Positions 26,037 through 33,557 of a DNA stretch of 64,000 nucleotides are shown piece after piece; position 1 is the first letter of the stretch, and every line of letters begins with the position of its first letter. This stretch comes from Alphaproteobacteria bacterium. GTDB taxonomy: Bacteria; Pseudomonadota; Alphaproteobacteria; SP197. Where the stretch lies: assembly GCA_964291265.2 (NCBI GenBank), contig OZ219747.1, positions 1,440,001-1,504,000 of the forward strand, read 5' to 3'. Below the pieces are notes generated by a model that was not told the DNA's origin, did no database searches, and saw only the letters and a program-made list of their open reading frames with translations. A program made the position numbers and the translations under genes.

Positions 26037-27770
26037 TCAGTTCTTGTGGGCGCCGAAGGCGCCGTCCATATGGCCCTCAGCTCCGTAGTGCGCGGAGAAC
26101 CTGCCGTGGATGCTGGTCGGTTGGCTGTTGGCGCCACCCGGCGTCCCCTTGTTGTTGTTGAAGAAGTGGAGCCAGGTGCGGTTCGCCGTGTCGGGAGCCG
26201 CGCCCTTCACCCCGTCGATGGTCCATGCCGTTCTGCCCCAATTGCTGCTCGTGCTCCCGGAGATGTCGGCCTGCTCCAGATCGACCTTCCAGTTGCGGCT
26301 CTGCCCGCCCACCATGAACTCGGTGATCGTGCCCGTGACCGTCCCGAGCGCGGTGCCATCGCCGAAGGCGGCGGTCACCGTGGCCTTGGCCGTCCACTCG
26401 CCGGCCTCGTCGGTCTGACCCTCCCGTTTCAGGGCATACATGCCGGACGCCGCCCCCGCGTAGGTCGCCGTGCCTGTCACCCCGGCCTGGACGGCTACCC
26501 GGTCATCGTTATACCACTCTTCATCTTCGGTATCCCAATAAGAGCCATGGGCGAGCTCCTGGAAGGCCAGCGCGCCGTCCTGCTTGTCCTTCTGCAGCCA
26601 CCAGCCGAAATACGTGTGCTTGTAGTCAGCCGTGCCGTCCGAGGTCGGCGCCTCGAGGTCCGTGTAAAGGACAAAGGTGTGTTCGTATCTGTCGTTACTG
26701 CCGGTCGCGCGGGTTCCGGCCCATCCGTGGAGGGCAGGGAGCTCCACCGACGTCAGGGAGAGCTCCCCTTGGTACACAGTCTCGTCGACCTCGTCGTCGT
26801 AGGCCTCGCTGTCGTAGATCCTGAGGCCCAGCGCCTCGCCGTGCGTCGCCGAGGTGATGTCCCAGAACCGTTCGATGAGGAGTTGTCTGTCAGACCCGCC
26901 CGCGCCCACAATCCTGTCTTTGAGCGCGGCGAACAGCTTGGTGACGTCCCAGGAAGGCATTGCCGGCGGAGGGGTTCCGCCAGACGAAGGCGTGCCGCCA
27001 GACGAGGGCGTGCCGCCAGTCTGGGGTGCGCCGCCAGCCGAAGGCGTTCCATCATCCGGAGGCGTCAGCATCACCGTCGGCGTACCGCCAGTATAGGTGG
27101 CCGTCCTGTCGTCGCCGACGGTGACCATGCAGTCCTCGCCGCCAGCCGGGCAGGTGTAGGTGACATCGCCGAGCGTCCCGCTTTCGCCGGGGGCAATGGT
27201 CAAGGTGCCGGCCATGATCGCGGCATCATCATCAATGCCGGACAGGTCCAGGGACTTCGGCGTCAGCGTCACCGTCGGCATACCGCCGGTATAGGTGGCC
27301 GTCTTGTTGGCATCCACGGTGACCATGCAGGCCTCACCGCCAGCCGGGCAGGTGTAGGTGACACCGCCGAGCGTCCTGCTTTCGCCGGGGGCAATGGTCA
27401 AGGCGCCGGCCATGATCGCGGCATCATCATCAATGCCGGACAGGTCCAGGGACTTCGGCGTCAGCGTCACCGTCGGCATACCGCCGGTATAGGTGGCCGT
27501 CTTGTTGGCATCCACGGTGACCATGCAGGCCTCACCGCCAGCCGGGCAGGTGTAGGTGACACCGCCGAGCGTCCTGCTTTCGCCGGGGGCAATGGTCAAG
27601 GCGCCGGCCATGATCGCGGCATCATCATCAATGCCGGACAGGTCCAGGGACTTCGGCGCCGGCGTCATCGTCACGTCTGCCTTCTTGGACGACCCGCCGC
27701 CACCGCAGCCTGCGAGTGCCAGGCAGGCAACGGTCATCGCCGCCAGAACCACATGTTGCGTCGTTCTCAT
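26037..27770 (-). CDS. Surface lipoprotein with three 66-aa repeats and a TbpB-like C-terminal beta-barrel
   Basis: Lipobox LALAGC-GGGG; repeats containing TCPAGGEAC; YFGWWL, GTATYAGAASG and terminal GAFGA motifs. Confidence 0.8.
   Translation of the reverse strand: MRTTQHVVLAAMTVACLALAGCGGGGSSKKADVTMTPAPKSLDLSGIDDDAAIMAGALTIAPGESRTLGGVTYTCPAGGEACMVTVDANKTATYTGGMPTVTLTPKSLDLSGIDDDAAIMAGALTIAPGESRTLGGVTYTCPAGGEACMVTVDANKTATYTGGMPTVTLTPKSLDLSGIDDDAAIMAGTLTIAPGESGTLGDVTYTCPAGGEDCMVTVGDDRTATYTGGTPTVMLTPPDDGTPSAGGAPQTGGTPSSGGTPSSGGTPPPAMPSWDVTKLFAALKDRIVGAGGSDRQLLIERFWDITSATHGEALGLRIYDSEAYDDEVDETVYQGELSLTSVELPALHGWAGTRATGSNDRYEHTFVLYTDLEAPTSDGTADYKHTYFGWWLQKDKQDGALAFQELAHGSYWDTEDEEWYNDDRVAVQAGVTGTATYAGAASGMYALKREGQTDEAGEWTAKATVTAAFGDGTALGTVTGTITEFMVGGQSRNWKVDLEQADISGSTSSNWGRTAWTIDGVKGAAPDTANRTWLHFFNNNKGTPGGANSQPTSIHGRFSAHYGAEGHMDGAFGAHKN
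27063..27656 (-). repeat. 198-bp tandem repeat x3 within the lipoprotein
   Basis: Period 198 (unit ends at 27260, 27458, 27656); two copies appear identical. Confidence 0.95.
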
Positions 27771-28369
27771 CGAACTCTTCTCCTCTCTCCAAGCCCGGAC
27801 CGACCGGGCCAATCGTTTGAACCGTTCCTGCGTTCCCCGAACCACCCTCGGAAAGTCTTGAGCGTGATGCCGGTCACGAAGCCCGCGCCCTCAGTCTTCG
27901 GCGAACTTGCCGCGGTCCCCCTCGGCCATGATCAGCAAGTTCACCAGTCGATGCCCGCGTCGCCCTCGTGCGCGAAGCGCCATCCATGATCATCGCGACC
28001 GCCCGCGCCCGCGAGGCATGCTTCGCTTCCCAGCAACGCTCGGCGGAACAGTGGATCACTGTGGATGAGGGGTGGAGCCACAGCCTCGGGGGCCGCGGCA
28101 GGTGCCGGGGGGTAAAACCGGCCCCGTCGGGAGGATCTTGCCACCGACGCGGCGTGCGCACTCCCGCATGCTCCCGGCAACGCGTTCATCCGCCTGCGCC
28201 CGGCGCTCTTCCAGTGGAGGAAGCGTGGGCGGGAAAGGCGGTATTCAGACGGGAGTGATGTCCCCGATGGCGAGCGGGTGGGCGCCGAAATCCGGCAACT
28301 CGGGAACATGCACCGTCGAACAGGCGCACGGCCGGGCCGTATGCCCCGGTGCATATCGCGGAATCTCAT

Positions 28370-28532
28370 GCAGAGGCGCAGAGGCGCAGAGGCGCAGAGG
28401 CGCAGAGGCGCAGAGGCGCAGAGGCGCAGAGGCGCAGAGGCGCAGAGGCGCAGAGGCGCAGAGGCGCAGAGGCGCAGAGGCGCAGAGGCGCAGAGGCGCA
28501 GAGGCGCAGAGGCGCAGAGGCGCAGAGGCGCA
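28370..28532. repeat. (GCAGAGGC)20 perfect microsatellite
   Basis: 20 perfect 8-bp units plus GCA. Confidence 0.98.
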
Positions 28533-29039: not shown

Positions 29040-29300
29040 GGGAACATGCCGACACCAGGCTCGCCCGCCTGCTGGAGGATCCCGGCCCGGTTTCGAACCG
29101 GTGGACGACGCCGACGACCGCCGGCTCCCGGAAGCGATGATGGCGGCGCACCACCCGCCGGGATGAGCCCGTCCGTCCGGCGGCCGGATGCGTTCCTGGA
29201 TCCGCTCGCAGCGCCACGGCATCCTCGGCGGGATCAGCTTCGGGTCCGCGACCCGGTAGCTTAGGGTGTTGATGTATGGATCTGATGGTCCGCCGACGCC
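29040..29300 (-). pseudogene. IS21 IstA transposase remnant
   Basis: SDPYINTL and GSSRRVVRR...VVHRFETGPG resemble the IstA RFETxPG motif. Confidence 0.5.
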
Positions 29301-29439
29301 CACGCCGCCAACATCGGGCGCGTGAACTGCCACCACCGGTTCCCCTGATTCCCGGCGTCCGGGTCCACGGGCTGACGTCTGAGGGTCCTGCGCTCAGGCA
29401 GCGGAGAGCGTCGCCGACGACCGGGAGGCTGGCTACGCC

Positions 29440-29690
29440 GTGCGCCAAGGTGACGCCCCACACCAAGACTGCCCCACTCTGGTTCAACCTCCGCAAACGG
29501 GCTGGTATCGCGGGTGTGCGTTTTCATGATCTGCGTCACAACTTCGCCAGCCAGGCTGTCCTGGACGGTGTGCCGCTTCCGACCGTGGCGAGGATCCTTG
29601 GTCAGCGGCAGGTTGCCATGACCCTGCCCTATGCCCACGTTGCGGACAGCGATGTCGAAGCGGCGGCGGGTCAGGAACACGATGACACAG
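29440..29690 (+). pseudogene. Tyrosine integrase C-terminal remnant
   Basis: WFNLRKRAGIAGVRFHDLRHNFAS...ARILG...MTLPYAH. Confidence 0.8.
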
Positions 29691-29805
29691 ATCATGACAT
29701 CGGGCGCGGCATCTTGAGGCCTTACTCGGGGTCGGTCCAATCCGGTTTCGTTCGACCACGATGCGCTGAACACCGTGCGCGGGCCGGCCCTCGGGAAAGG
29801 GTGCG

Positions 29806-31724
29806 GTGTGCCAGGCGAACTGGCGGAAGGTAGGGGGTGAAAGTCCCCTGAAACGAAGGAGTAACCAAACCACGTTTCTCCGCGAGCCGTGCGTCGGTTC
29901 CCGCGAGGGGGCAGGCGAAGCGTCGGTAGCGGTACGGATGGGCAGGGCTAATGAGCACCGAAAAGTCCGTTGTTCGGGGTGCCGAGGCTTTCGCATCGGT
30001 CGAAGGCAACATCGCAGGCATCGATTTGGTGAGATGTCGGCGAGCCCCGCGGTGTCGGAGAACCCATGCACGTCCGCACGCCTTCTGTTGGGACCCTGGG
30101 AGGTCTTCGAACTATCCCGCCTGTCGTGGCGGGACCGTGTAGGGAAAGGAGAAAGCCGAAGCCTATGAGGAACGGTTTGAAGAAGTCGGATGGGGCCGTA
30201 AGACCGGTGAAGGCGGCGAACAAGGGAGCGTCAGCTTCTGCGGAGTCGCTGGAGGAAAGGGCCTCAACCAAGGGGAATCCGGGACGCCAAAGCACGCACC
30301 GAACGCAGTGTCGGGCAAGTGTGCCACAGGCGGCGGACCGGATACGGGAAGCTGCAGAGAGGAACCCGAAGGAGCGTCTCACTGCACTCTTCCATCACAT
30401 TACGCCGGACGCGCTCCGGGCGGCCTACTTCGGTTTGAAGAAGGAAGCCTCGGCAGGTGTCGACGGCGTGACGTGGGCGGCGTATGGCGAGGGTCTGGAC
30501 GAGCGCTTGCTTGATCTGCACTCGCGCCTGCATCGTGGGGGAGCGTACCGGGCGCCGCCGGTTCGGCGGGTTGAGATACCCAAGCCGGACGGCGGGACAC
30601 GACCGCTCGGGATTGCCGCACTGGAGGACAAGATCGTCCAGAAGGCGGTTGTGGATGTGATCCTGACACCGATTTATGAGGTGGAGTTCCTTGGCTTCAG
30701 CTACGGGTTCCGACCGGGCCGAGGGGCGCATGACGCTCTCGACGCCCTGGCGTTCGGGATCGAGCGGCGCAAGGTCAACTGGATAGTCGACGCGGACATT
30801 CAGGGGTACTTCGACACAATCCCGAGGGATTGGTTGATCAAGTTCCTGGAGCATCGCATTGGCGACAGGCGGGTGATCCGTCTGATCCGCAAGTGGCTGA
30901 ACGCTGGCGTCATGACCGACGGATCATGGAGCGACACCGGTGCGGGCACGCCTCAGGGCGCCATTGTCAGCCCCTGCCTGGCGAACGTGTTTCTGCACTA
31001 CGTGCTCGATCTGTGGTTTCACAAGGCATGGCGTCCGAAGGTTCCGAACGGTAAAGCGATCATTGTCCGCTACGCGGACGATATTGTGGTCGGGTTCCAG
31101 CATAAGCGGGATGCGGAGACATACCTTCGCGACGTTCGGGAGAGGCTGGACCGCTTTGGTCTCACCCTTCACCCGGACAAGACCCGTCTCGTTGAGTTTG
31201 GACGGTTTGCCAAGGCGAACCGGCGATCTCGCGGGGCGGGCAGGCCGGAGACGTTCGACTTCCTGGGCTTCACGCACTTCTGCACGGAGACCCGGAGAGG
31301 ACGCTTCAGGCTTGGTCGCAAGCCGGTCGCAAAACGGGTCGCAAGGACCCTGGCGCGCATCGAGGAGGTGCTTCGCAATCGACGGCATCACGACATATGG
31401 GAGGTCGGCATGTGGCTTGGGCGAGTTGTCAATGGCTGGTCCAACTACTTCGCCGTTCCGGGGTCGACCCGATGGCTGCGCACGTTCCGCCAAAGGCTGC
31501 AACGCCTATGGCTGCGAGCGATCCGCCGCCGCTCCCAGCGCCACTGCTTTGACTGGAAGCGATTGGAGCGCATGACCGAGCTTCTTTGGCCGCGCGTCTC
31601 CATCCGCCACCCATGGCCGGACCAGCGGTTTACCGTCAAGCACCCGAGGTAGGAGCCGGATGGATTAACGTCCATGTCCGGATCTGTGCGGGGGGTGCGC
31701 AGCAATGCGCATCCCTACCGCGAC
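29806..31724 (+). mobile_element. Complete group II intron (probably bacterial class E)
   Basis: 5' GTGTG; domain V gagccggatggattaacgtccatgtccggatc; domain VI ending cctaccgcgAC; encodes an RT. Confidence 0.92.
30165..31652 (+). CDS. ltrA: Group II intron reverse transcriptase/maturase (no endonuclease domain)
   Basis: GVDG, IPKPDGGTRPLGI, YGFRPGR, GTPQG, RYADD and FDFLGF motifs plus X domain. Confidence 0.95.
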   Translation: MRNGLKKSDGAVRPVKAANKGASASAESLEERASTKGNPGRQSTHRTQCRASVPQAADRIREAAERNPKERLTALFHHITPDALRAAYFGLKKEASAGVDGVTWAAYGEGLDERLLDLHSRLHRGGAYRAPPVRRVEIPKPDGGTRPLGIAALEDKIVQKAVVDVILTPIYEVEFLGFSYGFRPGRGAHDALDALAFGIERRKVNWIVDADIQGYFDTIPRDWLIKFLEHRIGDRRVIRLIRKWLNAGVMTDGSWSDTGAGTPQGAIVSPCLANVFLHYVLDLWFHKAWRPKVPNGKAIIVRYADDIVVGFQHKRDAETYLRDVRERLDRFGLTLHPDKTRLVEFGRFAKANRRSRGAGRPETFDFLGFTHFCTETRRGRFRLGRKPVAKRVARTLARIEEVLRNRRHHDIWEVGMWLGRVVNGWSNYFAVPGSTRWLRTFRQRLQRLWLRAIRRRSQRHCFDWKRLERMTELLWPRVSIRHPWPDQRFTVKHPR

Positions 31725-31921: not shown

Positions 31922-32164
31922 ATGGTGAGCATCACGGTCCGCAATCTCGACGACGAGGTGAAGACGCGGTTGCGCGTGCGGGCCGCGAAACACCATCGCT
32001 CGATGGAGGAAGAAGTGCGCATCATCCTGCGCGAGGCTGTCGAGCTCAGGGAGTCCCCGAGGAATCTCGCAAGCGTCCTTCGCGCCCGCATGGCACCTCT
32101 CGGCGGCGTGGATCTTGAACTGCCGCCGCGCGGGCCGATGCGCGAACCGCCCACCTTCGATTGA
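31922..32164 (+). CDS. FitA-like ribbon-helix-helix antitoxin
   Basis: ITVRNLDDEVKTRLRVRAA..RSMEEEVRIILR. Confidence 0.9.
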   Translation: MVSITVRNLDDEVKTRLRVRAAKHHRSMEEEVRIILREAVELRESPRNLASVLRARMAPLGGVDLELPPRGPMREPPTFD

Positions 32165-32174
32165 GCGTGGCGCG

Positions 32175-32596
32175 ATGACCATCCTGCTGAACACGAATGT
32201 GGTATCCGAACTGTTGCGCCGGTCTCCCGATCCGATCGTCGAGGCCTGGGTGGGAGACCGCTCTGCAACGGGCCTGTATTTCTCGGCGGTCGGCGAAGCG
32301 GAACTCTGGTACGGCGTTGCGATCCTCCCGGCCGGCCGGCGTCAGGCGGCGCTTGCCTCTGTCATCGAGACGATCCTGCGGGAAGATTTCGAGGGCCGCA
32401 TCCTTTCGACAGTGCGGCAGTGCGGGACTATGCGGACATCGCGGCGTGTCGGCGTTCCACCGGATGTCCGATCGGCCCGGCGGACTGCCAGATCGCCGCC
32501 ATCGCCCGCTCGCACGGCATGGCGGCGGCGACCCGCAATGTCCGGGACTTCGATGATACCGGCATCGATGTCGTCGACCCCTGGACGGCGGCATGA
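32175..32596 (+). pseudogene. FitB/VapC PIN toxin, frameshifted
   Basis: LLNTNVVSE (D to N at the first catalytic Asp); frameshift near 32405, then FDSAA...DCQIAAIA...TRNVRDF...DPW. Confidence 0.85.
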
Positions 32597-33291
32597 GCGG
32601 CACGACGGAAGCCTTCGGCGCGCGTGAAGATCGACAGGCTGCTTGAGAACGCCGGTTGGATCCTGACGGACGGTTCGAGCATCCTGTTCGAACATGCGCT
32701 GCCCGACGGCACGCAGGCCGACTACGTGCTCTGCGACCGGCAGGGTCGGCCCATGGCAGCGCTGGAGGCGAAGCGTGCGAGTATCGATCCCATTGCGGCG
32801 CAGGACCATGGTCGGCACTATGCCGGACAACTCGGCCTGCCTTTCGTGTTCCTCTCGAACGGCGAGGAAGTACGGTACCTCGACCGCGAGACCGACGCCC
32901 ACGCGCGCAAGGTTGCCGGGCCGCGTGGACCTGCTCCTCGGAAGCGGTGTCACCGACGCCCACGCGCGCAAGGTTGCCGGCCTCTCGACACAACTCCGCG
33001 CCAAGGGGCGCGCCCGACGCCTACGCGCGCAAGGTGGCCGGCTTCAATGCCCGGGACGACCTCGAACGGCGCATTGCGGAGCTCCGGAGTCGCCGCGACC
33101 TGTCGGCGGTCGCCGTCGACCACAGGATCGTCGACCGGCCCTGCCAGATCGGATGCCTCGAGGCCTTGTCCGCCGAAGTCTCGCGCGGGCGGCGCTCAGC
33201 TGCTGGTCGAGATGACGATGGGCACCGGCAAGGCGCGCACGGCGGCGGCCTTCATCAAGCGGCTGTTCGAGGCGGGCATCGTCATCCGTGT
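32593..33291 (+). pseudogene. hsdR: Type I restriction endonuclease R subunit, N-terminal pseudogene
   Basis: KIDRLLENAGW, ADYVL, ALEAKR, FLSNG and LLVEMTMGTGKARTA (Walker A-like); frameshifts and truncation. Confidence 0.85.
32892..33041. CRISPR. Candidate ectopic (neo-)CRISPR mini-array: 3 x 28-bp repeat and 2 x 33-nt spacers inside hsdR
   Basis: ccgacgcccacgcgcgcaaggttgccgg at 32892, 32953 and 33014 (last copy has 2 mismatches); period 61; spacers unrelated; no cas genes in the window. Confidence 0.6.
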
Positions 33292-33557
33292 GGGGATGTT
33301 GAAAGGTCCGATGACCTGGACGATGCCGCCGTCAGTCTGCTCTCTGGCGATCGCCGGATTGACTGGACAGGGAGTCGAGGAAGGAGTCATGCTTGGTGAA
33401 GGAGGCAGTTCCGCCTCCCTGTCGGCACGGTGGCCGATGTGGGCGAGGGGAAGTCTCTTCGAGGGGCGACGTTCCTGTCGAACCGGAAACGATGACGCTC
33501 GAACCGGCGGTCGGGGCGTCTGAGCGGTGTCACCCGCTGACCGCGTCGGGAAAGGAG

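Follow-up and report, generated by a model that had tools for sequence, protein, structure and literature searches.

Repeat-spacer units of type I-E CRISPR dimensions in a decayed hsdR gene of an alphaproteobacterium: probable products of off-target Cas1-Cas2 integration

How does a unit with the dimensions of a type I-E CRISPR array come to lie inside a gene for a restriction enzyme? The question is raised by a locus, here called site A, in the stretch of 64,000 nucleotides that we analysed (the window; G000:C2:1440001-1504000, where G000 is the source genome). Copies of a 28-bp sequence start at positions 32892, 32953 and 33014 of the window, i.e. with a period of 61, and enclose two mutually unrelated spacers of 33 nt each. 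The preliminary description of this DNA had reported this geometry, with copies 1 and 2 identical and two mismatches in copy 3, and our analysis confirmed it. Off-target I-E products are recognised by a 33-bp insert flanked by two copies of a 28-bp target, and site A shows this arrangement. We regard it as very probable that site A arose by two off-target integrations catalysed by a type I-E Cas1-Cas2 that the lineage likely once had and has since lost.

Geometry of site A and its host gene

The unit and its surroundings in the window comprise:

31922..32596, plus strand: genes of a fitA-like antitoxin and of a PIN (VapC-like) protein, the latter frameshifted, upstream of hsdR in the same decayed cassette
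32593..33301, plus strand: what is left of a gene for an EcoAI-like type I restriction subunit R, covering residues 25-211 out of the 729 of a congener protein
32892..32919, no strand assigned: target copy 1, made of hsdR codons, with GCGCGC centrally at positions 12-17; single copy in homologues
32920..32952, no strand assigned: spacer 1, 33 bp, 30/33 versus the genome's own gltD, likely an older allele
32953..32980, no strand assigned: target copy 2, identical to copy 1
32981..33013, no strand assigned: spacer 2, 33 bp, no source match found
33014..33041, no strand assigned: target copy 3, 26/28, both differences departing from the state of the G005 homologue

A domain search identified an HSDR_N match on the left flank of site A. 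Intact hsdR homologues of two congeners, G005 and G022, carry the 28-mer once, and in them the left flank runs directly into the right one. The preliminary description had taken the repeat for hsdR coding sequence and had reckoned that spacers present in intact homologues would tell against an insertion; the former is borne out, and neither homologue contains the spacers. Aligned with the G005 protein (an EcoAI-like type I restriction subunit R, with a score below the model cut-off), the two pieces of the window gene show 79% and 61% identity and are gapless at the junction. The remnant also has extra bases near 32617 and 33196 and is truncated near 33290, while contigs of hsdR homologues from public sequencing runs lack a base near each of the first two positions and extend beyond 33290. 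The fitA-vapC-hsdR cassette is thus in decay, with the 122-bp insertion as one of its several lesions. Since hsdR carries these other lesions, the insertion may have struck an already dead gene, and the suggestion that it helped to inactivate hsdR is not supported.

Within the cassette, the fitA-like antitoxin ORF is intact and the stop codon of its PIN partner overlaps the hsdR start; many variants of the fitA/PIN cassette occur in the sequencing runs. Farther upstream the window contains a group II intron reverse transcriptase/maturase gene (30066-31652) beside a phage-integrase fragment (29276-29833), an intergenic pure 8-bp microsatellite of ~20 copies (28370-28529), and a gene for a predicted 602-aa lipoprotein (26037-27845, minus strand) with three near-identical internal repeats of ~61 aa and no clear Pfam family.

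Staggered joins 28 bp apart and a target duplication made by repair are established type I-E biochemistry. We propose that at site A Cas1-Cas2 took the core CCC-N-CGCGCGC-NN-GG for that of a CRISPR repeat, that a 33-bp prespacer was attached at the two borders of the 28-mer, with one join in each strand, and that gap repair duplicated the target; a second use of the same site would then have produced two spacers and three copies. The polar growth proposed in the preliminary description finds no support here. The polarity is unreadable because the differences in copy 3 look derived with respect to the G005 homologue, spacer 1 has diverged (3/33), and the target is near-palindromic (15 vs 13 of 28, depending on the orientation).

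Spacer sources and further sites in the same genome

Spacer 1 matches 30 of 33 positions of the genome's own gltD, the gene for the glutamate synthase small subunit (G000:C2:1418852-1418884, minus strand; TIGR01318 match above cut-off), which lies 54 kb from site A. Comparison with 11 congener gltD orthologues revealed that spacer 1 has the state common to all 11 at two positions where the G000 gene differs, and shares with the G000 gene two private bases (found in 0/11 congeners); one further base is private to the spacer. As spacer 1 mixes ancestral and lineage-specific bases, it likely represents an intermediate gltD allele, older than the present gene. To judge from these sequence comparisons, its capture is likely to have taken place part-way along the terminal branch of the lineage (0.054 changes per site), unless a sister strain was the donor; in terms of the mechanism, the prespacer would have been cut from the cell's own or a sister strain's chromosome before two later substitutions in gltD. 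Its exact donor allele was not found in metagenome contigs. The insert thus comes from distant DNA and not from the flanks, and there is no flanking microhomology with the target.

For spacer 2, searches of the source genome with up to 9 mismatches yielded only one chance-level match, no source was found in 22 congeners (up to 3 mismatches), viral contigs or metagenome contigs, and comparison with plasmids gave weak chance matches only. An origin from adjacent DNA, which had been named in advance as evidence against integration, is contradicted for spacer 1 by the location of its match. Among the 12 spacers examined, no source was identified for spacer 2 and seven others.

The whole genome was scanned with 28-nt windows having at least 24 identical positions at periods of 50-75, and periods not divisible by three were considered. 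The only such periods detected were 56 and 64, which reflect microsatellites of 8-bp units, 59, due to a single tandem duplication, and 61, the last with four events at three sites: two at site A and one each at sites B and C, the 28+33 dimensions being exact in 4/4. The search for further 28+33 duplications that the preliminary description had recommended therefore uncovered two more single-spacer sites with the same central core:

C2:2520300-2520388: site B, one spacer, copies 28/28
C2:3757023-3757111: site C, one spacer, copies 27/28

The core CCC-(G/A)-CGCGC is common to sites A, B and C, with GCGCGC at exactly positions 12-17 in A and B. The site-B spacer is identical (33/33) to part of a creatininase-family gene 156 kb away in the same genome, and site B lies within a multi-copy transposase-like remnant that has no Pfam match. 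Site C is situated within a decayed IS3-type transposase (rve), of which a paralogue in the same genome has the target once; a source for its spacer was found neither in viral contigs nor in congeners. A test of relative age between sites A and B gave no significant result (5/150 vs 0/122 differences, p = 0.07). All three sites fall within a pseudogene or decayed transposase, and such scars may persist mainly in dispensable DNA.

The 59-bp duplication (G000:C2:1128677-1128793) is a plain tandem one and not CRISPR-like. Near site C, at G000:C2:3757160-3757310, we also noted an element end of ~90 bp that recurs at about 30 other places and is likely an IS or MITE terminus.

At both self-protospacers of G000, those of spacer 1 and of site B, the opposite strand has an AAG that is shifted by two bases from the E. 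coli register; these are two cases spotted post hoc, and CTT/AAG has a frequency of 1.1% of positions. Slippage of AAG by 1-2 nt is a class documented in PMC4027179.

The responsible enzyme and competing explanations

Profile searches of the source genome (100% complete, 2 contigs) detected no cas1, I-E cas2, cas7 or cas6e, the last three models having scored in just 1/14 controls; neither was there a tblastn match to any G005 Cas protein, a leader match or a canonical repeat pair. The I-E cas1/cas2 and canonical repeat that were to be sought in this genome are thus both missing from it. The idea of Cas1-Cas2 acting in trans is supported insofar as it invokes off-target I-E integration, but the present genome contains no Cas1-Cas2 anywhere, and with no cas genes now the enzyme must have been lost or transient. 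The lineage does bear the trace of a 61-bp-period CRISPR system that had been asked for: I-E cas1 scores above cut-off in 2/22 congeners, and arrays of 28+33 are present in G009 (96 repeats, period 61), G005 (20 copies) and G020. The G020 array (G020:C2:16137-16409, L091) is canonical-looking and has 4-5 repeats; G020 possesses neither I-E cas1 nor cas7.

Judged by likeness to the G020 repeat, the targets belong to the top 1.2% (A), 1.2% (B) and 0.03% (C) of all 28-mers in the genome, a ranking counted for the three targets found without bias, the four pattern-found congener sites being left out as circular. Site A agrees with the G020 repeat at 15/28 positions and with the repeats of G009 and G005, the two congeners that have I-E cas genes, at 11/28 (top 20-25%). 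Likeness to an I-E repeat in register thus holds with respect to G020 and is weak with respect to G009 and G005. Site A resembles the arrays of all three congeners in its 28-bp repeat, 33-bp spacer, period of 61 and CCC...CGCG...GG core. The congener I-E arrays differ from it in possessing a leader, in the strong hairpin of their repeats and in spacers beginning with C (90/95 in G009, 15/16 in G005); spacer 1 does not begin with C in either orientation. Because site A is only weakly similar to the G009 and G005 repeats, whose spacers start with C, the integrase probably belonged to another variant of the I-E system, one that was later lost or was present only for a time. No protospacers of the G009 array from which the PAM of the congener I-E system could be read were found in 23 genomes or phage records, in the source genome under 7 mismatches or in 2.0 Mb of G009.

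No significant match to the G009 or G005 leaders was detected at site A, and its flanks (61-71% GC) contain no IHF-like motif and no sigma-70-like promoter. The predicted hairpin of the repeat is weak (-4.5/-8.7 kcal/mol, compared with -15 to -18 for the congener repeats). Cognate cas genes, a leader and a stable Cas6e hairpin, by which a functional I-E array is recognized, are thus all lacking here. With no leader, IHF-like site, promoter match or stable hairpin, site A should be inert as an array, and the other scars would likewise be inert for want of a leader and a stable repeat hairpin.

The G005 cas operon abuts tyrosine-integrase genes (L083:16687-19098, G005:C3), arranged in tandem beside I-E cas3. 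At least four close copies of these genes, ~73% identical, occur in G000, without cas genes. The integrases beside the operon hint at mobility of the I-E system.

Among the other origins that we considered for site A, the one that retains the same enzyme supposes that the array formed in another cell and was imported on a mobile fitA-vapC-hsdR cassette. Close hsdR homologues are indeed abundant and varied in the sequencing runs and patchy among the congeners, and the source genome has no cas genes. However, two bases of spacer 1 are found only in the gltD of G000 (in 0/11 congeners), and two other scars lie elsewhere on the chromosome, one of them with a 33/33 self spacer; import would require a sister strain as donor, and we give it a slim chance. 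A slimmer one attaches to capture without any CRISPR enzyme, either by template switching in repair or by the neighbouring group II intron reverse transcriptase, with an accompanying target duplication. The lack of cas genes, the RT gene 1.2 kb upstream of site A and the PAM signal off register would agree with such capture, but to our knowledge neither process has a 28/33 ruler, whereas the sizes are invariant over four events. Moreover, sites B and C are far from the RT gene, there is no flanking microhomology between spacer 1 and the target, and the register is common to 98 of the 119 loci listed in the survey described below.

An assembly artefact might be suspected, given metagenome-type data with many close hsdR homologues, and none of the contig pieces listed spans the whole array. 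Yet both spacer bins are covered by contigs of the public runs X1, X2 and X3, at depths of 77/77, 236/149 and 67/52, respectively, which resemble those of adjacent unique DNA; contigs of run X4 do not cover these bins. These runs stem from a single study, and the source sample may be among them; no RNA run contained the stretch at a usable share, and runs with shares of 0.04 were left out of any reading of the habitat. At site A, exactly 122 bases are missing from one X2 contig, as in an empty site; it probably represents a homologue from another organism. As the differences between spacer 1 and gltD are also phylogenetically ordered, unlike those expected from mis-assembly, we consider an artefact hardly credible. 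Finally, the CRISPR geometry and the orphan I-E array in G020 might suggest that a genuine array has degenerated here after deletion of its cas genes. This we practically discount: the repeat consists of in-frame hsdR codons that are single in homologues, and the empty site contradicts such an origin, as do the missing leader match and the weak hairpin. Off-target integration by a former I-E system therefore remains our preferred explanation.

Comparable sites in known systems and other genomes

Neo-CRISPR arrays have been described in E. coli (Nivala, Shipman and Church 2018). The account of this work in bioRxiv 10.1101/148544 calls their natural frequency unclear, states that artificial up-regulation was needed, and presents circumstantial evidence in two other species; off-target events are reported to be rarer, by shotgun sequencing, in PMC7054753. 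Site A shares with the E. coli cases a spacer-sized insert and a duplicated repeat-like chromosomal site away from arrays, but differs from them as described there in being natural, fixed in a wild genome, intragenic and hit twice, in a host now devoid of cas genes. Off-target acquisition is also one of three proposed origins of orphan arrays (Shmakov et al. 2020, as cited in PMC13142298). Like the orphan arrays in that account, site A is without cas genes; unlike them, it has as its repeat a piece of host coding sequence for which the empty site is known, and it is too short and non-canonical for a remnant. Cas1-Cas2 of Pyrococcus furiosus was reported to carry out full-site integration in vitro at a repeat-length, repeat-like non-CRISPR sequence (PMC6698737); these sites, in vitro and archaeal, with a 30-bp ruler, are unlike site A. 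Our literature search found no survey of natural 28+33 scars, although Nivala et al. 2018 and Shmakov et al. 2020 may list natural cases. Site A is most likely a natural off-target I-E product, a phenomenon known from the E. coli experiments; what sets it apart is that its host has no cas genes, that a site known in its empty state was hit twice, and that one spacer finds a place on the tree of the gene it came from.

Two core patterns searched over 33 genomes revealed four more two-copy 28+33 sites (two in G002, one each in G001 and G008) as well as the G020 array; a third core pattern added no congener site. One G002 spacer has a 33/33 match in the same chromosome, within a gene that we take from its translation to be folC-like, and the exact AA|G flank is present. 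For the spacers of G001, of the second G002 site and of G008, no self-match was found among 5 genomes each. Pattern matches in G010, G045, G024 (three), G047 and G048 lacked a 28-bp duplication and were dismissed as chance. In the G008 site (G008:C2:93059-93128, L108) the inserted 33-mer is a near-perfect palindrome. An unbiased scan of 2.0 of the 3.8 Mb of the I-E-bearing genome G009 detected four older period-61 sites (23-24/28), as compared with 0-2 sites at 22/28 for other non-triplet periods; the spacer of one of the four is a 31/33 self-match, without AAG.

We then searched GTDB for the 15-base core of site A occurring twice, 61 bp apart, with non-G where canonical repeats have G. This survey returned at least 119 loci from many phyla, counted on copy geometry alone, some of them being degenerate canonical arrays. 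The copies are at least 26/28 identical in 66 of the first 80 loci and in 32 of the other 39, i.e. in 98 of the 119 listed. Among the listed loci, identity between copies is 0.78-0.97 at positions 1-6 and 22-28, which were not part of the search, and falls to ~0.3 outside the 28-mer; the core thus fixes both edges of the duplication. In 45 of the 66 loci the repeats are non-canonical and no second array is present, and the flanking positions vary freely from locus to locus; three or more contiguous copies are present in 20/66. I-E cas1/cas2 were found in the retrieved flanks of 2/80 loci. In-frame rejoining of the host sequence gave no signal (31/56, vs 28/56 and 23/56 in shifted controls).

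Site A displays both the state before integration, in the empty homologue, and the state after it, in the doubly expanded site. As one narrow motif leads to at least 119 GTDB loci, about 100 of them alike, the natural birth of off-target arrays becomes countable by a period scan. The scars would also show that a genome devoid of CRISPR systems today once carried one of a given type, and a self-derived spacer placed on the tree of a host gene offers a way to date CRISPR activity. We lean towards the broader view that off-target insertion by I-E systems acts widely among bacteria as a natural mutagen that has been overlooked, and that its 28+33 scars would outlast the CRISPR system, mark past carriers, regrow into short non-canonical arrays and store dated host alleles (here the intermediate gltD), thus providing a DNA recorder readable in cas-less genomes.

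Six loci of the GTDB survey (L131, L136, L153, L161, L172 and L208) contain 4-8 contiguous non-canonical 28-bp repeats, with no cas1/2 in the retrieved flanks, and are candidates for neo-arrays that went on growing.
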